A stretch of 64,000 nucleotides of DNA from Anaerolineae bacterium (lineage in GTDB: Bacteria; Chloroflexota; Anaerolineae; Anaerolineales; E44-bin32). Within the stretch, counting starts at the first letter, position 1. Each line of letters opens with the position of its first letter. The stretch is from positions 338 to 64,337 of the forward strand of contig JAUWHR010000005.1 of the NCBI GenBank assembly GCA_030605795.1, in the 5' to 3' direction. Below are positions 3,621-62,400 of the stretch, one piece after another. The notes under the pieces were generated by a model. It saw only the letters and a list, made by a program, of their open reading frames with translations, was not told where the DNA came from and ran no database searches. Position numbers and translations under genes: made by a program.

Positions 3621-3665
3621 ATGATATAATAATATCTGGATCCGGCTAATTATTTGTACGGAAAG

Positions 3666-44497: not shown

Positions 44498-44526
44498 TGA
44501 CGTAATGTATAGATAGTGTAGGCTTT

Positions 44527-44817: not shown

Positions 44818-45258
44818 TTATTGTCGCTTATTCTCACCAAGAGAGTGAACCCACTCCAGCTGTCTTCCAACGGCTTTATAAAGAGGTCCATCCGCTGTCC
44901 AGAACTCCGCGTCCTCTGCTTCAGCCAGGGCGAGGTAGACCGCGTCATACGCGTTGGTCAAGCCAAATTCGGCCGCCAAATGCATGGCCCTGGGGCATAT
45001 ATGAACTTCCGACCTTGGTTCCAGTCCCAGCTGGCCGAGTTCTCCCAAGAGGCGGGCGGCATCACTCGTCTCAAGTTCCCCGGACCGAACCCGCTGATGG
45101 AGCGCGTTGCCCACTTCGGACCAGAGCAACATAGGCGCAAGCGCTGTAATACCCTCCTGCGCCCAACGCTTAGCCAGGGACAAGGCGTCCTCAGACCTCT
45201 CCTCGGGGACAAGCCATTTGACAGCTACGCTTGCATCAACAACAACTGCTCCGGTCAT
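44818..45258 (-). CDS. vapC: PIN-domain toxin (VapC)
   Basis: 146 aa. VVVDASVAVKW, LAPMLLWSEVGNAL, YDAVYLALAE and FWTAD acidic and conserved positions of PIN. Confidence 0.8.
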   Translation of the reverse strand: MTGAVVVDASVAVKWLVPEERSEDALSLAKRWAQEGITALAPMLLWSEVGNALHQRVRSGELETSDAARLLGELGQLGLEPRSEVHICPRAMHLAAEFGLTNAYDAVYLALAEAEDAEFWTADGPLYKAVGRQLEWVHSLGENKRQ

Positions 45259-45795
45259 TTAGCGGCTCTCCCTCACCCTGCGTATAATCTTCGCTGAGTC
45301 TCCCGATAATACCTCGTCGCCGAAGATTTCTTTCCGTAGTAGCTGAAGTTGCTCGATCTTATCCAAGCTCAATGACCCCTTGCCAGGTTCATGTTGTCTG
45401 AGATACCGGGCCGGCTCTTTCAAGAAGGAGGCCAGGAAATCGCGGATCGTCACAATATGCTCTCCCTCAAGATGGGGATACACGTCAACAGGAGATTTAT
45501 CGCCGTTGGCCAGGACCACCAAGGCGGGCACTCCTCGGCCGAAGAAAGTTCCCCCCCGACGGCGAGTACCAAACACCTGGCGAATGGCGTAACGGTTCCA
45601 AACAGACGGAACCACGGCATGACGGCAGTAAATATCGAATAGCTTCTCTTCAGCCAGATCTGCCGTGTCCACGAATTCCGCTCTAGCGCCCACCCGCTCC
45701 AGTCGTTTGAGCAGCCTTGGCACCTCCTCGAGGCCGAGGTTGGCCCGATCTTCCAGTGGCGCATGTTCTGAGGAGTGATAATAGCTGAGTTTCAT
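45259..45795 (-). CDS. 178-aa partner of VapC: unknown N-domain plus antitoxin-like C-tail
   Basis: Its stop abuts the vapC start. The last ~40 aa (SLSLDKIEQLQLLRKEIFGDEVLSGDSAKIIRRVRESR) resemble short VapB-type antitoxins. The N-terminal ~135 aa are unassigned. Confidence 0.45.
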   Translation of the reverse strand: MKLSYYHSSEHAPLEDRANLGLEEVPRLLKRLERVGARAEFVDTADLAEEKLFDIYCRHAVVPSVWNRYAIRQVFGTRRRGGTFFGRGVPALVVLANGDKSPVDVYPHLEGEHIVTIRDFLASFLKEPARYLRQHEPGKGSLSLDKIEQLQLLRKEIFGDEVLSGDSAKIIRRVRESR

Positions 45796-46467
45796 GGTGC
45801 CCTCTAATTTCTAATTAATCCCCCCACTCCTACCCACCCCTCATGATATTACAACTGAATCCACCAACTGTCAAGTCCCTCCTGACAAGCGCGTCTACCC
45901 TGACAATAAGTTAGCATTGCAATGCAGGTGAGGCCTGTGGCACGCTCCAACAACTCACCTGTTGTAATTCGTAGGTTGGCAGATCTGTATGTCCTTATGG
46001 AGCCTACATCCCAAGCGCTATCTGGATGGCGTACCTCGCCGACTCCAGCATCATAAATATAGGGAAGCACTTCAGCCAGCTGAGCCACGTCCACTTGGGC
46101 TATCAGCAGCACCTCACAATGCACCATGTAACGACTGTAGGCGATGATGATCGTCGTCTATGAGGGAATTGTAACTCCAGTGGGGATATTCCAACTAGTC
46201 GAGAACACCTTGCCCCTCTCGATTGCGCATAGCCTCATTTTTCTCTAAGTTTTTACGTGGTTGAGGATTAGAACTATATGTGGCTATGCGCATTGATCCT
46301 TTGAGACATCCTCAACCCTATTGCCGTTTTCAGCTAGACCAATTCCAGAATACTGAGCTGACAAGTATCCATATTTCGTCAATAATCATAAGGGCCGCAA
46401 TCGCGGCCCTTATGGCAATTCCACAGCGCGTTCGATTTCCAATCCTTATCGAGACTGACAGATCACT

Positions 46468-46959
46468 CTATTCCTCAAGAAATCGCAACCTGTTGCAGGC
46501 CACCCATCCTTTGACCGGCCACCCTTGTATCGCCTGGCCTTCCACAAAGCAAGTGCTTCCGTCCGGAAATACCGTCCAAAGCGTAATCTCTGCGCCGGCT
46601 TCCAAATCACCCAGCCATGTTCCCCCCTCGCTCAATCCTGGTGTTGAAAAGATTGGCAGCGTCTTTATCGTCTCATCGGGATCGTAGGGAAGCACTGACT
46701 CGGCCACCCATACTGTCATTGGAAACCATACCTCTGGTGTTTTCGTTGGAGAAGCTTCAGTCCCCTCCCCTTCCCGTTCAACACCATAAAGTTCCAATGC
46801 TTCATCGCCGGTGATCACTCTGGGACCAATTCCACTTGAGGGCGTTCCTGTTTGATCTGATCCACCCTCCCCCCATTGAAAGATTTCCCCAATGGAACAT
46901 CCAAACATAAATAGGCTCAGGCACACTACAACCAGGCCAACTAAGTAATTTCTAAACAT
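46468..46959 (-). CDS. Secreted lipoprotein, possible SH3b-like C-domain
   Basis: Lipobox LFMFGC after a hydrophobic leader. ATG at 46959 lies 2 nt after the upstream gene stop. Confidence 0.45.
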   Translation of the reverse strand: MFRNYLVGLVVVCLSLFMFGCSIGEIFQWGEGGSDQTGTPSSGIGPRVITGDEALELYGVEREGEGTEASPTKTPEVWFPMTVWVAESVLPYDPDETIKTLPIFSTPGLSEGGTWLGDLEAGAEITLWTVFPDGSTCFVEGQAIQGWPVKGWVACNRLRFLEE

Positions 46960-46961
46960 CA

Positions 46962-47594
46962 CTAACCACCCCCAGCCATCAATCCGGGCCATAGCCATAT
47001 ATAGACCATGCCTCCCAGGGCAGCCAACACGCCCCAGGGCATCCTTATAGCCTCCTCATCCGGAGGATCGCCTATGTGTTTTAATACCCACAACAATCTT
47101 TTTGCCCCTTCTGCTATCCCCCCTCTTCTTATTACCGTAAGTAAAATGCCGAGAATAATGGTTCCTCCAAATAAGTACCCAAGAATCCACCAATCACGTC
47201 CTACCGCGATGAGCCCGAAAGCAAGTTGAGCATCCCCTCCCCCAAACCAGCCAAGCCAGAAAATCGCCAACACGTACAACATCCCTGCAACGAAGGGGAG
47301 CGTGGCGAATTCTTCTGCCAGGAGCACAACAGCAATCAGCAAGATAAGTAGCCGCCACATCCCACCTCTGCTTCCCCAAATCGCAACGATGAAGAATAAG
47401 GCCTCAAGCCATAGTGCATCTTTTATAAGGAAGAGAAGACCCAACGCAAGCATGCCAAACCCCGACCCGTAAGGAATTATCCCCGACTTGAGGTCGCTTA
47501 TTGCGCCCCACATGAGGGCTGCACTCACCAAAACCGATAAGATCAGCATAAGACACATCCACCTCTTCTGCTGTTGGGCATAAAAGCACTCCAC
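46962..47594 (-). CDS. A24-family prepilin (type IV leader) peptidase-like membrane protein
   Basis: 210 aa, polytopic. ISDLKSGIIP and FGGGDAQLAFG supply the two Asp motifs of A24 peptidases. Confidence 0.6.
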   Translation of the reverse strand: MECFYAQQQKRWMCLMLILSVLVSAALMWGAISDLKSGIIPYGSGFGMLALGLLFLIKDALWLEALFFIVAIWGSRGGMWRLLILLIAVVLLAEEFATLPFVAGMLYVLAIFWLGWFGGGDAQLAFGLIAVGRDWWILGYLFGGTIILGILLTVIRRGGIAEGAKRLLWVLKHIGDPPDEEAIRMPWGVLAALGGMVYIWLWPGLMAGGG

Positions 47595-47636
47595 TTAAAA
47601 GGCAGTCACCTGCTTGAGATTCGTATCGACATCCGG

Positions 47637-48725
47637 CTACTGCAATTCGCTTTGTTTCGCCTGCCGGATGTCGTCCCTCTCAGCCTGCCAGCTTATCTCC
47701 TTCCCTACAGGCATCCCCCGTGGCTCGAACCAATAGGCAGCACCGTGATAACGATGCTGGAACTCCAGGTTGCTCACACCCCTTCGATTCTTCTCAACAG
47801 CCCAACGCACAACTTCGACCCCGTCCTTACCCCAACCATCTCGATTAGCTATTATTGCAAGATCGGGCTCATATTGCATGATGGCGTTTCCCCAGAGATT
47901 CTCCAGGTGAACCCGCCCTCTTCTTAACCCCTCACCATCGGCCGCTCCTACCGCAACGACGGATAACACGATCCCCTCTGATGTCTTCCGTATTGCAAGT
48001 CCCTTCAACCCGGCCAATACTCTTTCTATCCGTTCCTCGGCTTCAAGTGCCCGTGAGGGATCAATAACCGGCACACGCTGGACATAGTCCACAAATAATA
48101 CAATCCTTTTATTGCCGTAGTGATCCACGGCCAAGTCGATATATTTCGACAGCGCTTCAAGATCTGTGTTTACCCCATCCCCGGTTACCAACCATATATT
48201 CCTCATCCTCGCCGATAAACTTGCCCATGCTTCTATGCCTTTGGGAATTCTTGCGAGCACTTCATCCATCATGTGCAATTTGTGCTCGCCGTCCTGCTCC
48301 TTTAATCGATCCCGCTCACTGATCGTCTCGATGTAAGCATCCCGAAGCAAGTCAGTCGTGATGTGGGTTGAGGTTCCATTCTTGAACGAGCTCTGGCAGA
48401 TCAATCGCTCCCACAAGGTCACCGTGCTGTGCTCATAACAAACGACAATCGCTAGGGCTCCGGTGCCAGCGATGTGGTTCGCCCACTGCAGGATCAGGGC
48501 TGTTTTGCCAATATTCTGAACTCCACCTACTATATTCAAATCACCGGAGTGAAGCCCTCCCCCGGTCAACCCATCAACTGTCTCGAATCCCGTTGGTATG
48601 GGCCAAAAAGCATCCTTATTTCCTTCTTCCAGATTCCGCTCAATCTTTAGAGCAACCTCCTCAAGATCCTCTGGATGCATCACAAACGGCGGTAAATGGA
48701 AACCTCTCGGTGTTTCAGGCATCAA
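47637..48725 (-). CDS. DnaB C-terminal-like / RecA-fold ATPase (RepA/KaiC-like)
   Basis: 362 aa. FETVDGLTGGGLHSGDLNIVGGVQNIGKTALILQ (Walker A) and IVLFVDYVQ (Walker B), as in DnaB_C/AAA_25 proteins. No DnaB N-domain. Confidence 0.7.
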   Translation of the reverse strand: MMPETPRGFHLPPFVMHPEDLEEVALKIERNLEEGNKDAFWPIPTGFETVDGLTGGGLHSGDLNIVGGVQNIGKTALILQWANHIAGTGALAIVVCYEHSTVTLWERLICQSSFKNGTSTHITTDLLRDAYIETISERDRLKEQDGEHKLHMMDEVLARIPKGIEAWASLSARMRNIWLVTGDGVNTDLEALSKYIDLAVDHYGNKRIVLFVDYVQRVPVIDPSRALEAEERIERVLAGLKGLAIRKTSEGIVLSVVAVGAADGEGLRRGRVHLENLWGNAIMQYEPDLAIIANRDGWGKDGVEVVRWAVEKNRRGVSNLEFQHRYHGAAYWFEPRGMPVGKEISWQAERDDIRQAKQSELQ

Positions 48726-48896
48726 ATTAATCCGTTCCCTGCACGGTCCCTCACGCTTCTTCTCTATTACTATCTTCTATTCGTCTTTTCTTCCCACGCA
48801 CTCGTATCTAGAACGAGTAAGTAAAAGGATCCTTCTTAGGCAAATACCTTCTGTATCCCTTTATACTTGACCTTCTCGACAAACAACATTCATCGC

Positions 48897-49652
48897 TTAT
48901 TCTTCTAGAAAAATGACCTCTGAGGACAGCCTATAATTTGGCCCTCCGCGTCTCCCTCCACGTAATACCTCCAGGATGTCAACCCCAAGGTTCTTGCCCA
49001 ACACATGACGCATCTTCCTCAATCGCTGCCCATAAGCCATAGGGTCAGCATCCAAGTTCTCTCCCCACACGTATGTCACCACCTGGGCGCGATTTACGTA
49101 GCTCCACCCATCCTCGTCTCTAGCCGACACAAGAATTTCGATCAGCTTTGATTGGGTGCTTGTAATAGTTGTTTCTCTGTTTCCTGCCTTATAAATACCT
49201 TTTTCCATATCGAGCACCCCATCGCCGATTTTTAACTTCACGCCGCTCTCATGTTTCAGTTCAACCCCCTCCATCCGCGCTCTAAGCGCCTCCATTTGCA
49301 TCAGCAGTGCTTTAGGCCGGTACGGCTTTCGCAGATAGAGGTCCGCTCCCCTTGATAGCAGATCATGCTCTGGATAATCCTCAAAATAACCGGAAAGAAT
49401 GATTATGAAAACCTTGTTCCCGTACTTTTCTCGTATTAATGGGACCAGATCAGATGCGTTGCCATCCTCCAAGTTCAGATCCAGGATCAACCATCCCGCT
49501 GTTGTCTCCTCAAGCAGATTCATCACTTCCGACTTCAGTTTCGTCCCTCGGACATCATAGGTTCCTATCTGTTCAAAGATCTCTCGCATTTCCCTCGCCC
49601 GCGCCATATCATCTTCGGCCAGGATAATCCGATCGTAATTATGCATTGCCAC
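48897..49652 (-). CDS. OmpR-type response regulator
   Basis: REC domain (ILAEDD, LILDLNLEDG, LRKPY) plus a C-terminal winged helix (LTSTQSKLIEIL..YVWG). Confidence 0.8.
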   Translation of the reverse strand: MAMHNYDRIILAEDDMARAREMREIFEQIGTYDVRGTKLKSEVMNLLEETTAGWLILDLNLEDGNASDLVPLIREKYGNKVFIIILSGYFEDYPEHDLLSRGADLYLRKPYRPKALLMQMEALRARMEGVELKHESGVKLKIGDGVLDMEKGIYKAGNRETTITSTQSKLIEILVSARDEDGWSYVNRAQVVTYVWGENLDADPMAYGQRLRKMRHVLGKNLGVDILEVLRGGRRGGPNYRLSSEVIFLEE

Positions 49653-51144
49653 GAGAACTATCCTCCTCAGCCTTGATATCTTCCGGGTCAGCCAATGGAA
49701 GGACTACCTCGAACAGCCCACCTGATTCTTCTCGGTTGCTGTGACAGCGCAACTCACCACCATAAGCCCTGGCAATAGCTCTGGATACTGTCAATCCCAC
49801 GCCCATACCGTAATCCACGCGTATTCCAACTTTCCTATCTTCCCGCATGCTCTCAAGTGGTGCAAATATTTTGTCAACGTCATCGGGATCAACTCCTGGT
49901 CCCTCATCCTCCACATATACCCTGGCAAATTCACCATCTTCCTGCACTCGCACCTCGACGCTTCCTTCCATCGGGGTAAAAGAAGCCGCATTATGCAACA
50001 TGTTCCTCAATATCGATCGAAGGTGGTGATCTCCCACCACATTGATTTCATCACCCGCTTCTACGATAAACATTACATCCGGCCACGCAGGCCTGACTTC
50101 TTGCAATGTCTCTCGCAGAACATCACTTAACGATACGACATTTCTCTCAAAAGGAAGTACATTATCAGCGAGAAAGGGCGCTTCCCGCATGAGATTGGTC
50201 CAGTACCCCGCCCGCGTGAGAAACGGCCGAAGATACTTTACCATGCTGGCGTCCGTTGACGATGTTTTTTCGCTCTGCGCATCCATACAATTGAGTGCGC
50301 CCTGCAATTCGTTGTTTAACTCATGCGCCAGCACTCGCATGATCAATCCCAGGTTCTCAAAACCCAGACCCTCTCTCCGTTCAATCACCTCCATAAGGAT
50401 GCTTCCCATTCGCTGGACGATCATGCCCAGTCCTGTTGTGAGGGCCTGGATGATCAGGTTGTCTTTTCGCCATTTTCCAACCGTCAGAGCGATTGCAATC
50501 CCCGCGGATATATCCCCTGATTTGGTGTGAGAGGTCCAACAAATCAACGGCCTTTTGGAGCCATCACTGTCTGTAATATAATCGATTACACCGGGCAACC
50601 CCTGCTCTCCTTCCATTAAATCCTTCAGGAAGTTCTCAGCCCAGCTTATGTTCCATCCGCCTTCTAGATGCTCAGACATTACTGGCAAGTAACGCCGGCG
50701 CTTTACCTCCCCACGGATAAGCAATCCTGGCGCCCTTATCCACATAATCCATCCGGCGTTGCCCGGGAATAACTCAGCTATCCTGGCGCCCGCAGGATAT
50801 AACTTCTCAGAATTTAATGGTGAAGATAGATCTGCAAGCAGATTGTCCAGACCGCGCAGCCAGTCGAACAGCTTCACGACCACCATTTCGCGCCTGGATG
50901 CATACATGAGCAGCAGTGCCACCAGCGCTCCAAAGAACGCCACTGCCAAATTGGGAAAGATCTCAATCCACCACAGCTTGCCTCTTGAAGCTGGAGATAG
51001 CAGTACCGACGCAACCAATATGCCAGTGACAAAGAGCAACCCTATCCCTGCATGATAGAGATAGAAACGCCCCCTCAAGGACTTGATCCGTCTCCACAAT
51101 CTTCTGATCATTAGCTTTCTGCCTCCAGGTTGTCGAGCATCCAT
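49639..51144 (-). CDS. Sensor histidine kinase
   Basis: Two N-terminal TMs. H-box RVLAHELNNELQGAL. HATPase_c N, G1 and G2 boxes (NMLHNAASFT, VEDEGPGV, GMGVGLTVS). An alternative start at 51111 gives a TAATG overlap with the upstream gene. Confidence 0.75.
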   Translation of the reverse strand: MDARQPGGRKLMIRRLWRRIKSLRGRFYLYHAGIGLLFVTGILVASVLLSPASRGKLWWIEIFPNLAVAFFGALVALLLMYASRREMVVVKLFDWLRGLDNLLADLSSPLNSEKLYPAGARIAELFPGNAGWIMWIRAPGLLIRGEVKRRRYLPVMSEHLEGGWNISWAENFLKDLMEGEQGLPGVIDYITDSDGSKRPLICWTSHTKSGDISAGIAIALTVGKWRKDNLIIQALTTGLGMIVQRMGSILMEVIERREGLGFENLGLIMRVLAHELNNELQGALNCMDAQSEKTSSTDASMVKYLRPFLTRAGYWTNLMREAPFLADNVLPFERNVVSLSDVLRETLQEVRPAWPDVMFIVEAGDEINVVGDHHLRSILRNMLHNAASFTPMEGSVEVRVQEDGEFARVYVEDEGPGVDPDDVDKIFAPLESMREDRKVGIRVDYGMGVGLTVSRAIARAYGGELRCHSNREESGGLFEVVLPLADPEDIKAEEDSSRGNA

Positions 51145-52391
51145 AAAGCACCTTCAGGCGTCAGTCCTGGCGATTTGGCCATGAATTCGAGGAAAGAACG
51201 GAGTATCTCTCCCGTTCGCCTCTCTGTGCGACTTCCTCGCAGGAACTCTTTCATCTTCCCCTGGAATACCTGCGACGACTCGATCTGAGCCATGAGAGGG
51301 GGGTTAAATACATCCATAACTCCTGATTCTGAGAAGCACAGTATCCGATACTCGCAATCTCCGCATGCTTTCCACCCACAAACCATCCTGGGGACGTAAG
51401 CCCCGCCCCTTACACCTGTAATCACAGCTCTGGCCAGAGACTCTAAAATGTCTGACCCATCACCAATCTTCGGATGGAAATCCTGTCGCTCACCCGAGAA
51501 CAAGTGCCTTACAGCAACAGCTTCTACTGCAGTCTTATCCGATCCGAAGTCGAGTCCGTCCGGAACGGCCTGCCCCAGCGCAAGCACCCTCAGATCCCGC
51601 GCCAGGCTATAGGGTGGCGGCAGGACTTCATCGAAGAGAAATTGTTCGTATCCGAGCTTAATTATCTTCGCGGGCTCCCCACCGTCTTTCCTGGGCCTCC
51701 CACGCCTCTTGGACACACCCTCCCTTGTAACGAGGTCGGCACGACAGAGCATCCGGACGGAGGGAAGTTCTACAATCATCGGGACATTAACCCCCACCAC
51801 CGACTCCCGCTCCGGCAATTCGAGCTTATTCGCGATGTCCATCGAGTTCGCAAAAGCATCTGCCAATCCTATGGGCGCCTGGTAATACTCATCATCCGTA
51901 ATCGTCAGCTCCCCCAGCCCAATTTTCCTTTGTTGGCTGTCTATGCTTTTCCGAAGACTTGTAAGCCCACTGGACTCAGCCATCTCCCGCCAGAAGCGGG
52001 TCCACATAGGCCGCTTGTATCTTTTTCCCTCCCGGTTGGTAATCTGGCCATCTTCGAATCTGCTCAAGATAGAGCGCCGGCGCTGGTGATAGTCAACAAG
52101 CGCCTTCGCAATACCTGCATCAATCTGCCACCCATCCAACCATCTCTTCCACACCAGTCCAAGAGATTGGCCAAAGTTGTATTTTTGCTCCTTCCCGTTA
52201 AACCGGTAATAGATCTTGGTTGCTGTACGGATTGATTCCCGAACCAGCTGATCGCCTGTGCGCTTCCCTTCAACCTCAGCCACATCGGGCGCCAGACCGG
52301 TTCTCCGCCACCAAACTCTTAGCGGGCAAAACGCCCAATCCCAGATGTCATCCAGCAATATTTGAAGTTTCTTTCCTTTCGCTTTATCCAT
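51111..52391 (-). CDS. Cas4/RecB-like PD-(D/E)XK nuclease with Fe-S cysteine cluster (putative)
   Basis: 426 aa. N-terminal WAFCPLRVWW cysteine plus C-terminal CGWKACGDCEYRILC (contains CX2CX5C), the arrangement seen in Cas4/AddB-type nucleases. Confidence 0.5.
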   Translation of the reverse strand: MDKAKGKKLQILLDDIWDWAFCPLRVWWRRTGLAPDVAEVEGKRTGDQLVRESIRTATKIYYRFNGKEQKYNFGQSLGLVWKRWLDGWQIDAGIAKALVDYHQRRRSILSRFEDGQITNREGKRYKRPMWTRFWREMAESSGLTSLRKSIDSQQRKIGLGELTITDDEYYQAPIGLADAFANSMDIANKLELPERESVVGVNVPMIVELPSVRMLCRADLVTREGVSKRRGRPRKDGGEPAKIIKLGYEQFLFDEVLPPPYSLARDLRVLALGQAVPDGLDFGSDKTAVEAVAVRHLFSGERQDFHPKIGDGSDILESLARAVITGVRGGAYVPRMVCGWKACGDCEYRILCFSESGVMDVFNPPLMAQIESSQVFQGKMKEFLRGSRTERRTGEILRSFLEFMAKSPGLTPEGALWMLDNLEAES

Positions 52392-52426
52392 GGCCCTTCA
52401 GTCGACTGGCATGTTCCCAGCAATGC

Positions 52427-52852
52427 TCACAACTCTTCTTGTTTGACCTCTTTCTGGTCCGGCCTAACCTCCCATTTCAACACGCTTCCGCTTGTTAATT
52501 CGCCCAAATGATCTTGATGGATTTCTAAAATAAAACAAGCTGGTTTCGATGAAGCGTAGTAGGGCCTCCATGGTTTCGCCAGCACGGAATGCACCACGCA
52601 CCCTTCTTCATCCAGCCATGCAACAGCTATCGGAAACCTCATTCCAAGCATGTGAATAGAAGTAAGGAACCCTGATTTACCTTGCCTGCCCCCTGGCATC
52701 TTCATCAGGATACCTTCATCCAGACTGAGTTCTTTTCGTCCAAGCAACCCACCCCGGCGCGGAGCCCCCGACTGGCAGTAAAAAACCTTGCGTGCCAGCA
52801 CCCGATCGCCTATGTACAGAATCAGCCTGTCCCCATCTTTAATATCCTGCAT
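52427..52852 (-). CDS. DUF192-family protein
   Basis: 141 aa. GLLGRKELSLDEGILM..MLGMRFPIAVAWLDEEGCVV..ILEI pattern of DUF192 (COG1430). Confidence 0.65.
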   Translation of the reverse strand: MQDIKDGDRLILYIGDRVLARKVFYCQSGAPRRGGLLGRKELSLDEGILMKMPGGRQGKSGFLTSIHMLGMRFPIAVAWLDEEGCVVHSVLAKPWRPYYASSKPACFILEIHQDHLGELTSGSVLKWEVRPDQKEVKQEEL

Positions 52853-53241
52853 GGCCGCTATTCCTTGCTACGTTGCTTTTTAGCCAGCTCGTACTCCTCC
52901 CTGGCCATCTCCATATCTTCTATGCAATGTGTCATGTGATAAAGGAGCGCCAACACAACCAACGTAATACAAGTAACGATTTATCAGAATCTTCGTAATT
53001 GCCGATAGTCCTCCCAAGTTATATATGCTGGCGCCGACCACCCCACGTGATCTGTATGCCAGTCATATCGCATCGGATTATTCAGGTCGAACCGGATAAC
53101 CCACCACCTGACCCAATAACCCCGCCTTCCCTCATCCAAAGAGACGGGACTGACCTGTCCCAAAACGCCATGCAATAATATTCACCGCGACCGGCAAACA
53201 GACCGAACAGATACCTCATATACCTTTTATCATGCGCCCGT

Positions 53242-53529
53242 TCATCTGAAAGTTCGCGTCAACACCATGAAAAACCATATGCCTATCACAACATCGAATA
53301 ACACCATCGCGATCAGCAGAGCGTTTGCCAACCCTGGTTTTCTTTCCTTCAAGCTTGAGCGAATTCCCATGGTCAAAAAGAAAATTCCTACCACAAGCGC
53401 CAGAACTCCTAAGAGAAAGGACCACGCCACAGTCGCAGTCATGATAATCAGTAGGCCGGCAATGCCGAACACAAAACCCAGCGCTAATAGTCTAATGTCC
53501 CTGCCTGCATATTTTCCCTTTGTTATCAT
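53242..53529 (-). CDS. Small polytopic membrane protein
   Basis: 95 aa with 3-4 hydrophobic helices. The antisense ORF 53267-53536 is judged a shadow. Confidence 0.45.
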   Translation of the reverse strand: MITKGKYAGRDIRLLALGFVFGIAGLLIIMTATVAWSFLLGVLALVVGIFFLTMGIRSSLKERKPGLANALLIAMVLFDVVIGIWFFMVLTRTFR

Positions 53530-53699
53530 TACTTAGCTCCTCTCATTGTTCAGTCCTAGTAAAAACCTGTATTGTGTTCATGATCTTCAAGTATTATAGC
53601 AACTCGCATTTGAAACTAATTTATGTTCAATCACCATGTAGTTTCCGTTCAACATTCGTCTGTGCCATAGCTACATAATACCTTCGAAGAAACGAGGTG

Positions 53700-55286
53700 C
53701 TATGTGCGCCCTTCCTTGCCCTGGCGCTTGCGGCCTTCAAGTTCCGCAAGCACCAACCTTGCAAGACCCTGGGCTCTTGTTGGAACAGCTCCTGCGTCTT
53801 TATCTGGGTCTCCTCTTGGATGCGGCCTTACGTATGTCGTTCCTGGAGCCAATATCATTCCCTTACCGCGGGCCAGCTTTTTAGCCCTCCAGCTCGCTCT
53901 CTTCCCTGCTGTAAGTCTTCTTACATGTCCTCTTACCTTATGAGCTTCGCGTCTTATGCAATCCAGATCATGGTCGCTTCCCCACTTTATCCTCCCATGG
54001 AAACTTATCTTACCAACTCTACCTGTTGTTCCCACTTCCTCCTTTTGAAGAGGTTCCTCTGAAAGCATCACGTTTTCCCCACCCACCCGTAAATCTCGCC
54101 AGAGCGCTGCCAGTGTTGCATGTACTGCAGGTATGGTTTGCAATGACAGGACCCATCTGCTCACATGGGGTCGCTTCGTTTTCCAACGAAATGAGAACCC
54201 GGGCTTATCTCGCTTTTCAAGCGCAACCCACATACCCTTTTCAGGAATGAGCCATATACGAAGCGCTGTAACCCCCCATTCGCGCAGCGGTGTGCCTTCT
54301 GGCAGATCAACACGAAAAGACCCGCAGGGATTGCATATGGCCTTTTCGATCGCCTCTTCCATTAATGCAATACTCAATCGTGCTGCCTGCTCGGGACGCA
54401 AATTCGACCACTTCGGTTTTTCTGGCTTTCGACAGGCAAGATTTACCGGCAGGTCAAGGTAAGGTATCTCCGATCTATAACCTGTCAGGTAACGCAGTAT
54501 GTTATTTCTTACCCCCCCACCCTCCCACTCCAAGACCTGTGGCCACGCAATTTCTCTGGCAGGTCCTGTTGCTCGCAAACTAACTCCCGATACCTTGATC
54601 CTGAAATCTGGTTTCAGTTCCAGCCACGCAGCTGCTAAACGCGCTAGCAGGGCATAATATCTGATGTCCAGAACCTGTGGCGCAATTTTTCTTCGAACTT
54701 CTGGATCCCATAACGCTTTGGCTAAAGAAACCCAAAACCTGGCCGCATCAGTGGCGCTCGCATTTACCCTGGGGAAATCCCCACGATCGAGAAAAACGTC
54801 AATGAACTTTCCAACCTCGTGGGCCAACTCTTTCTCGCTCCAATGACTGTTTGAGATGTCCGTTCCCGCGTCTGCCAGTCTGGCAAATAGAGCCGACGCC
54901 TTCCTTACCTCTCTTGATCCCTGTTTTGACGCCTCGCCCACCGCAAGTACAGCTGCAAATACGGCTGCAGGAATACTATTGCCGAGCCCTTGTTCGTGCA
55001 TTTCTATTTCGCGCAAAGCCTCCACCACAGGTAGCCGGTGTTTGATAACCAACTGGATCTTTTTCCCGCTTTGTTTGTTCAAACCGCGAATAATGACCTG
55101 GTCCCCTTTTTTCCCTCCTTCTGATGAATCCGTTCGCTCTGCTTCCCAAACCATTCCCGGGTCGGAGGCAATTGACTTGCCTTCATCGAGCGTTGCGATT
55201 CCTGATACCATCGACGCTGAAATATCAATCCTTTGCCAACTCACTGATCCAAGAATGCAAACATGGCCTGGCGGCAGGCGCCTCAC
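53700..55286 (-). CDS. Hypothetical 528-aa protein
   Basis: Long ORF in the operon with protein-like composition. No motif recognised. Confidence 0.5.
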   Translation of the reverse strand: MRRLPPGHVCILGSVSWQRIDISASMVSGIATLDEGKSIASDPGMVWEAERTDSSEGGKKGDQVIIRGLNKQSGKKIQLVIKHRLPVVEALREIEMHEQGLGNSIPAAVFAAVLAVGEASKQGSREVRKASALFARLADAGTDISNSHWSEKELAHEVGKFIDVFLDRGDFPRVNASATDAARFWVSLAKALWDPEVRRKIAPQVLDIRYYALLARLAAAWLELKPDFRIKVSGVSLRATGPAREIAWPQVLEWEGGGVRNNILRYLTGYRSEIPYLDLPVNLACRKPEKPKWSNLRPEQAARLSIALMEEAIEKAICNPCGSFRVDLPEGTPLREWGVTALRIWLIPEKGMWVALEKRDKPGFSFRWKTKRPHVSRWVLSLQTIPAVHATLAALWRDLRVGGENVMLSEEPLQKEEVGTTGRVGKISFHGRIKWGSDHDLDCIRREAHKVRGHVRRLTAGKRASWRAKKLARGKGMILAPGTTYVRPHPRGDPDKDAGAVPTRAQGLARLVLAELEGRKRQGKEGRT

Positions 55287-55933
55287 CTACCTGCTCCTTC
55301 CCTCAATCAAGCGTCGGTTTCATCGCCGCATGGCTCAAAGAACCATTCCCAGCCCGGGCCCCGCCCCTTCTTCGCGATGCGTTCGCCCAAGCAATAAAGC
55401 TACCAATGCATGAACTCGCCATACAGTTCCAGAAGACTTCCAGCATTCCCCATTATGCATAGAATGCCAGACTTTCTGTTGCCGCCTCCTCTCTCGCCGG
55501 CCTCCACATACCTTATTCAGCTAACTTGAAATGCTTCCATCTCCACTAAAAAACCGCCGTGCCCAACCCCGCTCCTCATTTTCCGTGCCTCGCTTATTAC
55601 TTCCGCGATTACGGTGTTACACATAGAGCCACCAAAAAATCACAAACGCTATTCCGCCCAAAAGTAATGCAAAAAAGGATCCCGCAATTGGATATCCCCT
55701 CATAAACCCGGCGATGCCTCCGCCGTGTGGCTGAATTTGCTCGGGAACGTTCGCACTTGACGCTGCCCTGCCTTTTTTTTCGATCGGACCAACCAGGATT
55801 GGTCGTCACCCATGCTCGATCCGATTGTGCACGTTCCTGGGCTATCCGTTCCACAAAATCCTTTTCATCCATGGTCTAAATTCCTCCCATGGGCTTTGCT
55901 TCATCCACATTACGCGATTTCTCCACACGAGCA

Positions 55934-56152
55934 CTAATCCTTCCGGTTGGGCACCTCAAGGTTACCCATATCGAGTCCTGCGTCGTGAAGTATTTGAGCT
56001 CCCTCGTCCGACTTCTGTGTTTCAGCCCCTTTCCCTCTCCGGATCCTTTCAATAATGCCCTTTGCTACTGCATCGTTCGGTTTCTCAGGATCGACATTTC
56101 CTCGTTCGTCTCTTTTGCTCCTACTTACCATCCGTTTTCCCGGATCACTCAT
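55934..56152 (-). CDS. Small charged hypothetical protein
   Basis: 72 aa. Its start overlaps the stop of the upstream gene by 4 nt (ATGA), suggesting coupling. Confidence 0.4.
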   Translation of the reverse strand: MSDPGKRMVSRSKRDERGNVDPEKPNDAVAKGIIERIRRGKGAETQKSDEGAQILHDAGLDMGNLEVPNRKD

Positions 56153-57879
56153 CGTCCCTTGTACCTTATCCTCTCTCGATCACCCCTCTTCCTCAGACTG
56201 CGTCTTAGCTCTCTCTTTCTCCACGGCTGCTCGCCTAAAAAAGGACGATCGCCAATTTTTCCGGTGCATTTCCATACCTCTCGCCAGGGCGCCATCCCCC
56301 CAATTGACTCGTATCCGAGCCCCACAGTATATTTTGCAGCAGATAATCTCGCCGGTGCATTGACCAGCCACCACTCGTGGCCTCTAGGGAGTATCAATCG
56401 GTCCAACAGAACAGTCCATCCGTCGATGTGACGGTCTCGCATCAACTCGAGTAGCTTGCTTTCCCTGTATGGGGATCCATCGATAACCCATACAAGAACA
56501 GGCTTAGCCGATTTCAAAGACTTCCACAGCTTCGCGTAGCTATCTAATCTCTTACCCAGCCGCGTGATCGGCATCGTTGCTCGATCGATTTCAACTAATA
56601 ATGTGTTTTCAACAAGCGGTCTATCAACCAGGGTTGTGTCGCCGTCAAGCCATCCGTGATACCAGATCGTTGCTTTTACCAGAGCATCGGGCATCACGAT
56701 ACCAGTCCTTCCAGTCCTCCCAGAAATATGATCCCGATACAACAGCCTGCTTCCCACAGTGGTTGTCATCTCAACCTGCGCTCCCCCGATCAGATTGGAT
56801 ACACACCTGGCCCCATATAGCAAGGACAGAGCGAACTGCCTGACCAATCGCTGGTGGTCCCCCAGATTGCTCAGCCACCTGAGGGAGTACTTCGTCTTAC
56901 CTCTTATCTTGCTGTCTGGTTTCTGCGGCCAGGGTTGGAAGCGTCGCATGTAACCGGGCTTTGTCCCCCAATATCCGGCCAGCATTTCAATCGCCAAGGG
57001 GGTGATTATTTTGCGATCCTCGAGCTGATCCCTTGCTATGGGCGATCTTCCTGTTTCAATCAAACCTGATTCTTCCATTCCTTTGATTCGATCTATCCTG
57101 GCCCGCATGTCCCTGCCATCGTCAGAAAAGAGGTAAGCAAGCTCGTAGGTCGTCAGCAGAGGATTATTCCCTGCTTCAACCAGTAATTCCCAGTCCTCCA
57201 TCGACAATTTGCCTGCGATCCTGCCGAGCGCGCTTCTACGGTGGTCCCCCCTGTGGCGGATACGGATATGTGCTTCCAGCTCTCTTCTCCCGTATGGCTT
57301 CCATTTGATTGTGGCAGATGAGCGCCTCTTGGGCCTCGCCACACGGCGTTTGCCGGTCCCCACAAGCCATACATGAATCTTCCACCCCCCACCCCAATTG
57401 AGCTCAACCTGATTAACCAGGCTGTCCAGTCGATCCTGATCACCGGTGAGTATGATGTCCCGAACACCACCGCCGTATTCCTTCGGTGGTTCGCGAATAA
57501 ATCCCAGCGCCTCAGGTGCACACCCCCCGAGATCAACCCACAATCTCCACCACCTGTCATCCCAGAGAAATTCGCCGTCCGCTTCGAAGCCAGGCGATAG
57601 ACCTGCCCGGATAGCGTCTTCCCCCATTACTTCGAGGGCGAAGTTCCGTGCCACCTCAAGCCTGCATAGATCCAGCAAAACGCAGGCCGGCTCCTTTCGA
57701 TCTGCATAACAAACACCTGACCCCTTCACCTCATAGCTCCTCAGCCGCCCCCCTTCCTCATGCAGGAGCCTGCCCACAACCATCTCGCCAAATACCCTAT
57801 CCAGAAAACCTCTGCTGCTGTAGGGCATGCGCCTCAGGAAGTCGACCAGGGTATCTTCCCGATCGCTGTTACGACTCAC
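56149..57879 (-). CDS. Replication-relaxation (Replic_Relax)-like protein
   Basis: 576 aa. Winged-helix-like LLTTYELAYLF..MEESGLIE, then GDHQRLVRQFALSL..IVMPDALV..LLVEIDRATMP..YAKL, resembling the H..PDA..E.DRGT pattern of the family. Confidence 0.55.
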   Translation of the reverse strand: MSRNSDREDTLVDFLRRMPYSSRGFLDRVFGEMVVGRLLHEEGGRLRSYEVKGSGVCYADRKEPACVLLDLCRLEVARNFALEVMGEDAIRAGLSPGFEADGEFLWDDRWWRLWVDLGGCAPEALGFIREPPKEYGGGVRDIILTGDQDRLDSLVNQVELNWGGGWKIHVWLVGTGKRRVARPKRRSSATIKWKPYGRRELEAHIRIRHRGDHRRSALGRIAGKLSMEDWELLVEAGNNPLLTTYELAYLFSDDGRDMRARIDRIKGMEESGLIETGRSPIARDQLEDRKIITPLAIEMLAGYWGTKPGYMRRFQPWPQKPDSKIRGKTKYSLRWLSNLGDHQRLVRQFALSLLYGARCVSNLIGGAQVEMTTTVGSRLLYRDHISGRTGRTGIVMPDALVKATIWYHGWLDGDTTLVDRPLVENTLLVEIDRATMPITRLGKRLDSYAKLWKSLKSAKPVLVWVIDGSPYRESKLLELMRDRHIDGWTVLLDRLILPRGHEWWLVNAPARLSAAKYTVGLGYESIGGMAPWREVWKCTGKIGDRPFLGEQPWRKRELRRSLRKRGDRERIRYKGR

Positions 57880-57884
57880 CTGGT

Positions 57885-60821
57885 CTACTCATCGTCCTGC
57901 TGATGTCCTTCATCAGGGTATATATAATCAACATCGGCTAAGAACTCCTCTTCCCACCCATTCTTAATCTCCCGGCCCATGAGAACCTCACTCGCCTCAG
58001 CAGCCGCATCTCCGTTTGGGGCTGTAGAACGGGCATCACCTTCAACACTCCATGGAAGGTCCACTTCGCCGACCGCCTCCTCAAAACCGCTTCTCTCTTT
58101 AGAGCCTCCCAGCAATACACCAGCTGCCTGAGAGGACGAAGCAGATGCAGACAACCGCGAACCAGATGATGTAACTCCACTGCTCAGAACGGTCGCTCCA
58201 TATTGATCGAAGTATGTGAGCATTTCCATGGCCCTTTGCCTGGCAACTTCGTGCGGCAAACTGTACTCCGCCCTCATCGCCCTCACCCTCTCAGCCATCA
58301 TTTCATCCTTCTCCGGAGGGGGTTCGCTCTCAAAGTAAAAAGGTCTGCTCAGCCGCCCATCCTCTCGCTCAAGACGTACGTAAGCCTTATACGGTTCTAA
58401 GCTAATGAGTGTGTCTGCCCCCGGTCCGCCTCTTTCCCGACTAAGTTCCAGCCTAGAAATGTAATCCGCATCATCACCATTTATATTGAAGGCGAACAAG
58501 GAGTACACACCGCTAAGGATGATCTCGGGTATATTTATGTCCTGCTTCCGCAGGCTCGCCAATGACTGTGTACCCAGGATCATCCGTCCGCCATATTTAC
58601 GCATTTGCTGTATTAGTTCCGCCCACGGGACGCCTGTGAAAGTTTGGAACTCGTCTATGACCACCATAACCGGCACCCGGCTATCTGCAAATCTTTCCCC
58701 CTGACGCACAAGTTCCCTCAACAGGACGTTTATCATCAAGGAGCCAACAAAATCGCTGATCTCCGACCCATATTTGCTCATACCGGTGTTGATCACTAAC
58801 AGCTTCCGTTCCCTGATCACCTCCGCAATGTCTAGCTTTGACTGAGGGCAACTGAACAAGGCCAACATTGGATCTTCTTCAAACCTGTACGCTTTCGAAA
58901 GCACGGGTTGAATCACCTGTTCCCTGAAATGACGGCTGAGCGTTTCGTAGTCATCCAAAAAGTAGTGGGCTAATTTCATCCTGTGCTGACTGCCCTCAAG
59001 TTCGGTCCGAATGAAATTCTTTCTAACATCTGGATGTGCGCTCAGGATTGCAGATAGCTGCGACAGACCCAGACAATCGTCATCAGGCCGCTGTTCATTT
59101 GCTGCTACAAGGAGCTGAACTCCCCGCTTTAGCGGAATCTGCATTCGTGGTCCCCAATAATCCGACCACAGCGCCTTTCCAATATCCACAACCGAGTTTG
59201 TGACTTCGATAACTCCCCACCCTACACGATGGACGTCCAATGGGTTGAATGTGAGGGTATATTCTTGATCTCCCACATCTAGTATCCTGACCCGCTCAGC
59301 GTCCTCGGGGTCGATCGCTCCGATAAGCTGGTTGACCAGGTCTCCGTGTGGATCAATAACAATAACCGCCGGGTTTTCTTCGTCCCTCATCCCTGCCAGG
59401 GAAAGATGCAGCATCAGTGTCGATTTCCCCACCCCAGGTTTCCCAACGCAAAATAGATTGTGCTGCATCGCTTTCGACGATATTCGAACCGGCTTCTCAC
59501 CGCCATCGGCTGTGAAATACTTGCCAATCTGGTAGAACCCCTTCACGTCCTCTGGATCCGGCGATCGCATCTCCACACCACGGACAGGGACGAGTCCGGG
59601 TGAGACCCGGCCATTAACCATCGGGGGGTGCCACAGGCCGGCCACTTCATCGGGCCCAAGCCACATCCATCCCTCTTGGCGGTCAATAAAATGTACCGGC
59701 CATGTTCCAATCCCTTCGAATGGATCAACTGCGATTTGGAAGCGATTCCCGCCCGCAAGCGAATACTGCGCCATCGCACTATCCAGACGTTCGGCCAACG
59801 CTCTTGCCTTATCGAGTGTCGCCGCCCATACACTGGCGCGTACAGCCACCTGGTAGAACATGTCCTGATGAACCACCTTCTGGCGGACCAGGGAGAGGTC
59901 CGCTCCATGCCAGGGATCGTCGTCTTTGCTGACGAAACGCAGCAGTATGCCGCCTCCCGCGATCACAAGAAGAGACAATAATATAAATGGCAGCCACTTT
60001 TCCTGGATGGCGAAGAGGATGGCCACGAGGGCTATCAATATCACCATCAAGAAAACGCCGCCCTTTGCCATAGACAGGCTTTGCGGCATTGGAACCTGAG
60101 AGAAGGTTGGCGTCGTAGTTGCAGTTAACCCGTTGGCATTTACGGTGTACCCGCGCTGTGCCTCAAGCTTCAGGCGGCGCTGTATAGCCTCTAACCAGGG
60201 AGGTTTACCCTTCCTCGCAATGAGGAATTGGAGCCAGACTTTCTCATCTGGCATCAATCCAAGAGTGGTTGCCAGCAATGTATGAACCGGATCCCCGTGG
60301 CGAAAGGACATCCAGGTACGTATAGGTAAATATGAAGCAGCCCCGAGGGTGAATGAGAAATTAAAACGGCTTATCGATTTATGTCCCCCGTTCGATTGCA
60401 TCGGATCCTGGTCTAGAATGCGCAAAACAGCGCTTGGCCACAGGCTTTGAACCTTGCCTGCCATGAATTTCAAGCTGTCTTCAGTCCCTCTCACAAGCAT
60501 GACCCGTCGATCCCCGACGCCGTAAATTTCGAGCGATATGGGTAACGGCATTGAAGTGATGAACTGCCCCACAGCTTCTTCATCTACTTCGTTATGCGCT
60601 GGTAGCTGCAGCTCAGCTACCTTTTCTTCATTGATAGCGCCAGCTCCGGATACCGCTGTACCCGGGTTCTTGGTAATCGAGTCAAATATCCATTGGCTGT
60701 CTATTGCTCTCAGGGTGGCCCCACAGTGGTGACATCGCATTCCCTGGGAAGCCCCTTCTTCAAGCGTGCAAGTTGTATGACCATGGGGACATGCGACCTT
60801 CGGCTCAGAAAACATAATCAC
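57885..60821 (-). CDS. TraD/VirD4/FtsK-like P-loop NTPase with N-terminal zinc ribbon and TM pair
   Basis: 978 aa. CPHGH..CHHCG ribbon. Two TMs (VFLMVILIALVAILFAI, PFILLSLLVIAGGGILL). Walker A FCVGKPGVGKST and Walker B VMVVIDEFQTF. Acidic Ser-rich tail. Confidence 0.7.
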   Translation of the reverse strand: MIMFSEPKVACPHGHTTCTLEEGASQGMRCHHCGATLRAIDSQWIFDSITKNPGTAVSGAGAINEEKVAELQLPAHNEVDEEAVGQFITSMPLPISLEIYGVGDRRVMLVRGTEDSLKFMAGKVQSLWPSAVLRILDQDPMQSNGGHKSISRFNFSFTLGAASYLPIRTWMSFRHGDPVHTLLATTLGLMPDEKVWLQFLIARKGKPPWLEAIQRRLKLEAQRGYTVNANGLTATTTPTFSQVPMPQSLSMAKGGVFLMVILIALVAILFAIQEKWLPFILLSLLVIAGGGILLRFVSKDDDPWHGADLSLVRQKVVHQDMFYQVAVRASVWAATLDKARALAERLDSAMAQYSLAGGNRFQIAVDPFEGIGTWPVHFIDRQEGWMWLGPDEVAGLWHPPMVNGRVSPGLVPVRGVEMRSPDPEDVKGFYQIGKYFTADGGEKPVRISSKAMQHNLFCVGKPGVGKSTLMLHLSLAGMRDEENPAVIVIDPHGDLVNQLIGAIDPEDAERVRILDVGDQEYTLTFNPLDVHRVGWGVIEVTNSVVDIGKALWSDYWGPRMQIPLKRGVQLLVAANEQRPDDDCLGLSQLSAILSAHPDVRKNFIRTELEGSQHRMKLAHYFLDDYETLSRHFREQVIQPVLSKAYRFEEDPMLALFSCPQSKLDIAEVIRERKLLVINTGMSKYGSEISDFVGSLMINVLLRELVRQGERFADSRVPVMVVIDEFQTFTGVPWAELIQQMRKYGGRMILGTQSLASLRKQDINIPEIILSGVYSLFAFNINGDDADYISRLELSRERGGPGADTLISLEPYKAYVRLEREDGRLSRPFYFESEPPPEKDEMMAERVRAMRAEYSLPHEVARQRAMEMLTYFDQYGATVLSSGVTSSGSRLSASASSSQAAGVLLGGSKERSGFEEAVGEVDLPWSVEGDARSTAPNGDAAAEASEVLMGREIKNGWEEEFLADVDYIYPDEGHQQDDE

Positions 60822-61506
60822 CCCCGGTTCTTATCCAAGAGAGTGGGCTGGTACGTTTCACAATAGCCGCGGAATGCGGTGGGGAAATTAAATAAGATGA
60901 GGCATGGTGACCCGCGCGCATCGTTTCGCAAACCATTCCCAAATCTTGTATTCCTCCAGCGGTGTTAAAACCGCTTAATTTGGAGCCTTTTATTCGATTG
61001 TACGAGAAAAAACCACACATGAACGTGACCAAAGTGTCCACGAAAGTGTTACCTTACCGTTCCCTTCCATGCGAGGTTATCTTCCACGACCTCGGCAATC
61101 TGGAATTGTGTCCACCGCCAAACCGATGGATGACGACGTCATATGTAATGTTTGAAAGGGGGAATTAACTATCTTGGTGGGTTAGAAGGTGTAGTGTGGT
61201 TTTTATTGTGTAAATACAGTCTTGATTAAAGTACGAGACACAAGAATTGTTCCTTGATGGCGAAGCTCACAGGATGACCCTGGAAGGAGATTCTGATATC
61301 TCAAATTGAGGATACTTTTACTGGATTGAACCCGCCGTAAGCCATAGCCGTGGCCATCGTCTTTGCCTCATGGGCTGGTTGGTACCGCCGTCAAAGCGCC
61401 CAGCCGAGGATGACCGGGTGCTGCGCCTCTTCGCGGGAGCGGTTGAGGTGATGAAATTTCACCACCGCGCTTATGTGCTGCAATCGCTCCACCATCCTGA
61501 TCCCAT

Positions 61507-62376: not shown

Positions 62377-62398
62377 AAGGCACCCTTTCAGGTGCCTT
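62377..62398 (-). terminator. 8-bp perfect hairpin between the two tRNA fragments
   Basis: AAGGCACC-ctttca-GGTGCCTT. On the minus strand it is followed by TTTTCTCTTCC. Confidence 0.5.
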
Positions 62399-62400
62399 AA

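Follow-up and report, generated by a model that had tools for sequence, protein, structure and literature searches.

The 64,000-nucleotide stretch analysed here (hereafter the window; Anaerolineae bacterium, contig JAUWHR010000005.1) carries on its minus strand, from position 60821 down to 46468, a tight series of open reading frames (ORFs) joined by short gaps or overlaps, with 14 of 14 ORFs confirmed at their listed coordinates. Read along this strand, the operon encodes a coupling protein of 978 amino acids (aa), a candidate relaxase, small ORFs, a 528-aa protein, a small membrane protein, a DUF192 protein, a Cas4-like protein, a histidine kinase and its response regulator, a RecA-fold ATPase, an A24 prepilin peptidase-like protein and a lipoprotein. 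Pfam matches above the curated cut-offs were obtained for six of these products (978, 576, 141, 501, 251 and 362 aa), and the scan returned no direct match above cut-off for those of 528, 426, 210 and 176 aa. A preliminary description had seen in the operon a DNA-transfer module built on a coupling-type ATPase and a Replic_Relax protein, which the Pfam matches above cut-off for both proteins bear out, and had raised the question of whether its gene order recurs elsewhere. By fetching 164 loci (cited below by their L numbers) and mapping the window proteins onto them (tblastn and ORF clustering), we found the gene order conserved across dozens of Anaerolineales contigs, with recurrence in more than 15 independent ones, which is more than chance would give, and the full order of the window in L082, L083, L084, L085, L095, L097, L101, L103, L161 and L164.

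The 978-aa ATPase exceeds the cut-offs of TrwB_AAD_bind (36.8 bits vs 20.5), T4SS-DNA_transf (25.3 vs 20.1), DUF87 (26.2 vs 23.2) and TraG-D_C (23.4 vs 22), and FtsK_SpoIIIE (PF01580) finds no match in it at E<=0.01. The early label of a TraD/VirD4/FtsK-like ATPase is thus upheld for the VirD4, TrwB and TraG families and dropped for FtsK. The protein has two hydrophobic segments (~248-300), a Walker A motif (GKPGVGKS) at 460 and a Walker B motif (VVIDEFQ) at 720, and begins with a Cys-rich, zinc-ribbon-like motif and a domain of ~180 aa that is conserved among 14 homologues. The traits expected of a VirD4 protein were found together, namely the Pfam families, a membrane anchor with a P-loop, an adjacent relaxase gene (5-nt gap) and, in sister clades, an adjacent VirB4 gene. 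Close homologues form ~55 clusters (35-68 % identity), the few source-named ones being labelled Anaerolineales or Chloroflexi, and more distant ones occur in Ktedonobacteria, Chloroflexia, candidate-phyla-radiation bacteria and Micromonospora. A sequence-profile search of the family against the PDB gave nothing useful.

The neighbouring 576-aa protein matches Replic_Relax (PF13814; 28.9 bits vs a cut-off of 25.3), the family listed as MobC in the CONJscan table (PMC5357655) and placed in the PD-(D/E)XK fold, related to restriction endonucleases (PMC3424549; PMC12857230). Among 14 homologues P397-D398 and E430-x-D432 are invariant, and R433 is nearly so. We regard it as a candidate relaxase of the MOB_C class, in which nicking activity would follow from family membership. 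The VirD4-family matches, the missing FtsK_SpoIIIE match and the MOB_C neighbour argue, at the level of sequence, for a VirD4-type coupling protein paired with a relaxase, and not for a protein of the FtsK/TraB type.

What the operon belongs to becomes apparent from relatives that hold a complete transfer cluster. In L010, whose coupling protein is 35 % identical to that of the window, the genes for DUF192, the Cas4-like protein, kinase, regulator, RecA-fold ATPase and A24 peptidase lie downstream (the locus ends at A24; in the wider L010-type group a lipoprotein gene follows there too). The block upstream of them consists of a pilin part (a 63-aa Flp-like protein with G-x4-EY, TadE (PF07811) and TadG-like/Tad (PF13400)) and a channel part (a multi-span VirB6-like protein, a PrgI-like protein, a VirB4/TraC-like ATPase matching AAA_10, P-loop_TraG and TraC_F_IV, and an M23 peptidase). 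The order in complete relatives is prepilins, VirB6-like, PrgI-like, VirB4, M23, coupling protein, MOB_C relaxase, a large variable protein, DUF192, and then the Cas4-like gene through to A24; of this series the window retains the part that starts with the coupling protein. Since the complete element of L010 carries them, the genes from DUF192 to A24, once taken for unusual passengers, are better described as standard parts of the family. In both sister clades of the window's lineage, too, VirB6-like, PrgI-like, VirB4 and M23 genes stand directly upstream of the coupling-protein gene (preceded by Flp/TadE-type prepilin genes in the complete Anaerolineales relatives), and distant Chloroflexota loci (L016-L022, L028) show PrgI, VirB4, M23, coupling protein, ParB, RecA-fold ATPase and a winged-helix protein. 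Because the coupling-protein genes of the relatives immediately follow those for VirB6-like, PrgI-like, VirB4 and M23 proteins, the family is assigned, from gene content, to conjugation of single-stranded DNA by a type IV secretion system (T4SS) of the single-membrane kind. Searched by tblastn with the relatives' proteins, the 64-kb window itself holds no homologue of VirB4, VirB6-like, PrgI-like or M23 proteins, in keeping with the VirB-less locus first described.

On a neighbour-joining tree of the coupling proteins, the window falls into one clade with L001-L007, L082, L083, L098, L102 and L103. VirB4 is found upstream in no member of this clade in which 3-10 kb could be read, whereas it lies directly upstream in both sister clades and in most outgroup loci; the simplest account of this pattern would be that the mating-channel block was lost once in the window's clade and the rest was kept. 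The relaxase is ancestral in the clade and was lost in a subclade (L001, L003, L004, L005, L098 and L102). The loci that have a relaxase, the window among them, are set in unrelated flanks with integrases, toxin-antitoxin pairs, methyltransferases or restriction-modification genes, an Mrr nuclease and an nSTAND protein.

Three further loci deserve mention. In L012 (10064-12854) the coupling-protein gene is split into three ORFs and is likely a pseudogene, though VirB4 and relaxase look intact, and the same bin also carries the complete L010. L007 has a coupling protein and relaxase of the window type and is binned as Candidatus Fermentibacteria, not Chloroflexota, which reflects either cross-phylum transfer or a binning error. 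In L104 (1-5635) the coupling-protein gene is lost and the relaxase reduced to a fragment of 43 codons, with the genes from the 528-aa homologue through the lipoprotein intact. Searched by tblastn against 72,556 plasmids, the coupling protein and the RecA-fold ATPase found only ATPase-domain matches of 23-26 % (Streptomyces and Bacillus plasmids); no sequenced plasmid in that set resembles the operon, and a known plasmid or annotated element was rejected as its identity.

Table 1. Features of the minus-strand operon, with the ratio of nonsynonymous to synonymous substitutions (dN/dS) against L084.
Feature	Coordinates	Strand	Remark	dN/dS
Candidate -10 box TACAAT	60997..61002	-	~180 nt upstream of coupling-protein gene	
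VirD4-type coupling protein, 978 aa	57885..60821	-	Pfam above curated cut-offs	
Replic_Relax protein, MOB_C-class candidate relaxase, 576 aa	56149..57879	-	PF13814	
Small acidic protein, 72 aa	55934..56152	-	ATGA overlap with relaxase gene	
Doubtful ORF, 87 aa	55609..55872	-	Homologue in L084 alone	
Protein of 528 aa, function unassigned, family-specific	53700..55286	-	Same slot in eight loci	0.40
Small membrane protein, 95 aa	53242..53529	-	Homologues in four loci	0.12
Doubtful ORF, 63 aa	52984..53175	-	Homologue in L084 alone	
DUF192 protein, 141 aa	52427..52852	-	Pfam E 7.3e-10	0.35
Cas4-family Fe-S-type PD-(D/E)XK-fold protein (predicted), 426 aa	51111..52391	-	Four Cys and predicted fold	0.07
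Membrane histidine kinase, 501 aa	49639..51144	-	HATPase_c E 8.6e-19	0.21
OmpR/PhoB-type response regulator, 251 aa	48897..49652	-	Response_reg, NCBIfam PhoB	0.03
Stand-alone RecA-fold ATPase (DnaB_C/KaiC-like), 362 aa	47637..48725	-	DnaB_C E 4.1e-12	0.12
A24 (prepilin peptidase)-like membrane protein, 210 aa listed	46962..47594	-	Family match PF01478	0.14
Lipoprotein, 176 aa, final gene of conserved block	46468..46998	-	Lipobox Cys in homologues	

A check of the junctions recovered the three overlaps reported earlier, i.e. ATGA at 56149-56152, TAATG at 51109-51113 (the kinase may start at 51144 or at 51111) and 14 nt at 49639-49652. Some gene starts are likely to need revision. In L084, a metagenomic relative that is 97 % identical, stop codons interrupt the ORFs listed as 528 aa and 210 aa within their first 10-13 codons, which implies that the true starts of both genes lie later (for A24 probably at 47558, giving 198 aa), and gene callers place the start of the ATPase at the ATG at 60815 (976 aa). 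The coding status of the 87-aa and 63-aa ORFs is doubtful given their poor conservation: the former is 75 % identical in L084, against 93-99 % for the neighbouring genes there, and the latter 79 %. The gene of the 72-aa acidic protein is translationally coupled to the relaxase gene through the ATGA overlap. This protein has a homologue in L083 (42 % identity), and its C-terminal motif LEVP..KD is common to 70-aa proteins of L001 and L005. Across nine genes dN/dS against L084 amounts to 0.03-0.40 (dS 0.07-0.13); taken with the intact Walker motifs and the invariant relaxase residues, these ratios indicate that the operon genes are functional and under purifying selection.

For the downstream genes, the preliminary description was sustained in its calls of DUF192, a histidine kinase, an OmpR-type regulator and a DnaB_C/RecA-fold ATPase (Pfam or NCBIfam matches), of a Cas4-like protein (invariant cysteines and Foldseek matches), of an A24-like protein (24/24 relatives scanned match PF01478) and of a lipoprotein (lipobox cysteines in homologues). 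The 528-aa protein, with homologues 40-47 % identical at the same position, yielded a confident AlphaFold model (mean predicted local distance difference test, pLDDT, 81.6; predicted template modelling score, pTM, 0.78), so that the structure prediction proposed for it succeeded as a model and found no fold match in the PDB or in BFVD (viral set). It likewise has no Pfam, NCBIfam or PADLOC match and no profile similarity to the relaxase or to the HTH_36 protein that fills its slot in the L010 clade. A confident model that matches nothing in two libraries makes it a candidate for structural and functional study. The 95-aa membrane protein is 49-55 % identical to its homologues in L082, L083, L085 and L095. 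The DUF192 gene is conserved in 27 loci, and in L017, a distant Chloroflexota T4SS locus, it is placed between the VirB6-like and PrgI-like genes (3411-3812), a position that ties it to the transfer apparatus and speaks against cargo; the literature on DUF192 offered nothing informative.

In the 426-aa protein, C22 and C343-x2-C346-x5-C352 are invariant in alignments of 19 and 23 sequences. The best Foldseek matches of its AlphaFold model (pLDDT 77.7) in the PDB are all Cas4-family structures (ACE1 9iac at 3.6e-5 with probability 1.0, AddB, AdnA, Cas4 8d3l, SSO0001, Dna2 and EXO5), with TM-scores that are low (0.17-0.48) because of extra domains. Pfam Cas_Cas4 matched 1 of 19 family members (E=0.12), and a sequence-profile search of the family against the PDB gave nothing useful. 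The predicted fold and the four-Cys pattern together support a Cas4-like protein. Only the L010 clade shows a clear D...YEK motif, and since the E and K positions vary in the window's clade, where the catalytic motif appears partly degenerate, nuclease activity is uncertain.

The histidine kinase is matched by many NCBIfam histidine-kinase models, and its partner by Response_reg and by the NCBIfam PhoB model, whose span over residues 8-232 marks the regulator as OmpR-type. The Walker A region of the 362-aa ATPase matches RecA, KaiC and DnaB in the PDB. No other partner of the coupling protein is as well conserved as this ATPase (64-78 % identity in the window's clade, 40-45 % in the L010-type group), and a 31-35 % identical version is found beside a ParB gene in distant Chloroflexota transfer loci. 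The A24 copy of the window reaches E=0.041 against Peptidase_A24, and its relatives as little as 9.5e-8; the aspartate of GGGD (D121) is invariant and D34 nearly so. A sequence-profile search of this family against the PDB gave nothing useful, and the assignment as A24 prepilin peptidase-like is supported by the family matches. A scan for the prepilin-type N-terminus G-x4-E-[FY] found none in the window and three in L010. The lipoprotein homologues, 41 of which follow an A24 gene, begin with a signal sequence and then the lipobox cysteine (LAAC, VSGC, SIGC). Homology to the related loci stops at this gene, none continuing past it.

Upstream of the operon, an alignment of six regions (window, L002, L082, L083, L103 and L164) shows a TACAAT hexamer that is invariant at 5/6 positions and constitutes a candidate -10 promoter box; a generic promoter scan did not call it. 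Just upstream of this hexamer, L002, L082 and L083 have four CAAACG repeats at a spacing of ~11 nt, which is typical of binding sites of OmpR/PhoB-type regulators. The promoter may be controlled by the operon's own regulator.

The wider setting is that of a chromosomal island. Sugar-metabolism and glycolysis genes at 15-34 kb place the window on the chromosome, and from ~36 kb onward the DNA is a mosaic of, in order, a disrupted integrase, a DUF3800 gene, an intact integrase (38982-40139), genes for a tetratricopeptide-repeat (TPR) protein, a GXGXG protein, a 408-aa protein and a PIN protein, and then the operon. Over 42000-60800, G strongly outnumbers C on the coding strand (GC skew ~0.25, whichever strand codes), against ~0-0.1 in the housekeeping region at 15-34 kb. 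A motif of ~28 nt (ATCGyAGATTCAACTyrCAAGTsCAACA) occurs twice in tandem at 36145-36240 (+) and once inverted at 62627-62654 (-), copies that bracket the entire 26-kb mosaic island and of which none would be expected by chance. The disrupted integrase (~36418-36948, -) is a second tyrosine recombinase with in-frame stops, 28 % identical to the intact one (189 aa, E 2e-11), and looks like a decayed integrase; the DUF3800 protein beside the intact integrase (38182-38961, -) matches the PADLOC candidate PDC-M04A at 7e-92.

We reason that the operon represents the relaxosome, coupling and regulatory half of an Anaerolineales family of T4SS elements, whose mating-channel half was lost in the window's lineage, and that it is now a mobilizable 'hitcher' descended from a complete conjugative element of Chloroflexota; to this reading we grant an even chance. 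Having no VirB4, the operon falls outside the definition of a self-transmissible element, and given that it encodes no channel a helper would be needed, so that transfer would most likely depend on a complete relative. In such a scheme the two-component system would control the promoter upstream of the coupling-protein gene, the MOB_C relaxase would (as its family membership implies) nick an origin of transfer (oriT), the membrane-anchored VirD4-type ATPase, whose domains are in place, would receive the relaxase-DNA complex, and the DNA would leave through a VirB4/VirB6 channel supplied by a complete element in the same host. Element maintenance or the processing of DNA ends would fall to the RecA-fold ATPase and the Cas4-like protein, and the A24 peptidase would have element-encoded prepilin substrates in the complete relatives and none encoded in the window. 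Signs of mobility are the differing, integrase-bearing flanks of the window-type loci, the G excess on the coding strand, the contigs of several relatives that break <1 kb upstream of the coupling-protein gene, and the finding of complete and window-type elements together in six metagenome projects (SDBS01, SDBT01, SDBU01, RCNF01, Ga0307421 and Ga0114922).

A number of observations weigh against the operon being a hitcher. The nearest integrase is 6.3 kb from the operon and may belong to a separate cassette of 4.4 kb bounded by palindromes: a near-perfect palindrome (TGCAACTTAAG...TTAAGTTGCATTA) at 40154-40182, 15 nt upstream of the integrase start, has a second copy 4.4 kb off at 44527-44555, the pair bracketing the TPR, GXGXG and 408-aa genes, and a similar palindrome (TGCAAT...ATTGCATTA, ~14985-15020) precedes a related integrase in L104. 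That integrase, 73 % identical to the window's and 1.6 kb from the L104 operon, has the opposite relative orientation. Neither convincing direct repeats (attachment, att, sites) flanking the operon nor an oriT were identified, only 3.2 kb upstream of the operon are visible before the window ends, and among the best 80 hits no second coupling protein of the complete type was seen in six bins with a window-type operon (the bins being incomplete). The hitcher model also leaves unexplained why A24 is conserved with no prepilin gene in the window. Lastly, the relaxase-less subclade retains all its other genes intact (70-92 % amino-acid identity), and L001, L003 and L004 share flanking TetR and ABC-transporter genes that have diverged to a similar degree (80-92 %). 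This subclade looks vertically inherited and chromosomally fixed, which hints at domestication.

The same subclade, with its coupling protein intact and its flanks equally diverged, is an argument for a domesticated chromosomal module, in which the channel was lost and the coupling-type ATPase, RecA-fold ATPase, A24, lipoprotein, DUF192 and two-component system were kept for a role of the host in its envelope or in DNA handling, with no intercellular transfer. The lack of att sites and the purifying selection on A24, RecA-fold ATPase and regulator would also agree with it. Against it, the MOB_C relaxase of the window copy is still intact and its catalytic residues are invariant, no two loci with a relaxase have the same flanks, in which genes of mobile elements and of defence abound, and the base composition of the operon is unlike that of the host backbone; we hold domestication to be rather unlikely. 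Related to it is a self-sufficient envelope machine under two-component regulation, made up of the VirD4-type and RecA-fold ATPases, A24, the lipoprotein and DUF192, which would translocate DNA with no VirB4 channel or else serve the host; the relaxase-less, fixed subclade hints at the latter option. We think such a machine improbable; if true, a coupling protein would be put to a new kind of use.

The operon could also be one part of a larger self-transmissible element with its channel genes past the end of the contig or in another part of the genome, as the short upstream stretch, a source contig of ~64.5 kb in all and the frequent breaking of assemblies at mobile elements would allow. Yet every relative that contains VirB4 has a VirB4 or M23 gene immediately beside its coupling-protein gene, whereas upstream of that gene the window has non-coding DNA, a transfer RNA (tRNA) fragment with a terminator and a major facilitator superfamily (MFS) transporter gene of 40 % GC; moreover, L083 (7.7 kb upstream) and L001 and L006 (10 kb each side) show no channel genes, making this a distinctly remote prospect. 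Still harder to accept is a stand-alone DNA translocation by a coupling-type ATPase without a T4SS channel, on the model of Streptomyces TraB or Thermus TdtA. The VirB4-less form is indeed long-lived and widespread, and the long N-terminal extension with its zinc-ribbon-like motif and two hydrophobic segments is unusual, but relatives with VirB4 next door have the same N-terminal architecture, which is thus no adaptation to channel-less life; with a relaxase present and no FtsK_SpoIIIE match, we consider this very unlikely. An anti-phage defence system of an ATPase and nucleases, to which the PADLOC match of mad8 to the ATPase domain (6.5e-15), the two PD-(D/E)XK-fold proteins and the defence genes flanking some loci might point, has next to nothing in its favour once it is considered that PADLOC returned only generic P-loop ATPase matches (mad8, DndH, HerA) and none for the other nine proteins, that the ATPase and Replic_Relax are conjugation families and that the relatives are embedded in T4SS clusters; it was rejected, and with it the defence alternative of the preliminary description.

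There is ample documentation of mobilizable integrated elements that bring a relaxase and a coupling protein of their own (PMC5357655; PMC11389934). Like the streptococcal integrative mobilizable elements (IMEs; 'hitchers') described there, the operon combines a relaxase with a coupling protein, has no VirB4 or channel, is likewise located in a chromosomal island beside integrase genes and apparently derives from complete conjugative relatives. It differs from them in being much larger (14 kb), in adding seven or more conserved genes (two-component system, DUF192, Cas4-like, RecA-fold ATPase, A24, lipoprotein and 528-aa protein), in its host phylum (Chloroflexota), and in that no att sites, oriT or helper were found for it. 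The core of single-membrane T4SS elements (PrgI/VirB3-like, VirB4, VirB6-like, hydrolase and VirD4; PMC12857230) is precisely what L010, L014 and L016-L022 have; the window ATPase is the VirD4 orthologue of these complete members, and the rest of the core is absent from the window. The complete Anaerolineales members add Flp/TadE-type prepilins and A24, and the 2025 T4SS review mentions neither prepilin peptidases nor Chloroflexi (PMC12857230). With the studied MOB_C relaxases, TraX of pAD1 and MobC of CloDF13 (PMC12857230), the 576-aa protein shares the Replic_Relax match, the PD...ExD residues and an adjacent coupling-protein gene; it differs in its length, with long extra N- and C-terminal regions, and in that its nicking activity is a prediction. 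The TraB/FtsK systems of actinomycetes resemble the operon in having a single large membrane ATPase and no VirB4 in the locus, but the window ATPase is without FtsK_SpoIIIE, is accompanied by a relaxase and has T4SS-linked relatives. TraB systems are not known to use a relaxase. VirD4 families, MOB_C relaxase and T4SS-linked relatives thus set aside the likeness to the double-stranded DNA transfer of actinomycetes that had been proposed for the operon. The Cas4 family (Cas4, the nuclease domains of AddB and AdnAB, and the Argonaute-associated ACE1) shares with the 426-aa protein the four-Cys Fe-S pattern and the predicted fold; the latter is distinguished by its size, an extra helical domain of ~200 aa, a context without CRISPR or Argonaute and an E-x-K that is unconserved in the window's clade.

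The suggestion of an undescribed element family has held, for the literature yielded no description of such elements or of conjugation in Chloroflexota, a process that to our knowledge has not been characterised so far. What emerges from the loci is a family of transfer elements specific to the phylum, in which the set of accessory genes is fixed (two-component system, DUF192, Cas4-like protein, RecA-fold ATPase and A24) and, in complete members, TadE-type prepilins. They comprise three stages, i.e. complete elements, channel-less ones with a relaxase (the window) and relaxase-less, seemingly fixed ones, a series that can be used for studying how conjugative elements decay into hitchers or become domesticated.

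Beyond the upstream end of the operon, at 62377-62431 (-), lies what looks like the 3' end of a tRNA (31 nt of T-arm and acceptor, 62401-62431), followed directly by a terminator-like hairpin facing the operon. Since ARAGORN called no tRNA in the window, the fragment has no second copy there and its own terminator points towards the operon, a tRNA-based att site for the operon was rejected. On account of the terminator, the fragment is probably the leftover gene end at the integration site of the low-GC (40 %) DNA beyond 62.4 kb. At the other end of the window, domains of a group II intron were recognised at 7740-8316 (+; Rfam RF02001 at 90 bits, RF00029 at 44.9 bits), and an ORF at 12484-13815 (+) has a DUF4158 domain, which we take to be the N-terminal part of Tn3-family transposases; the ORF is probably a transposase remnant.

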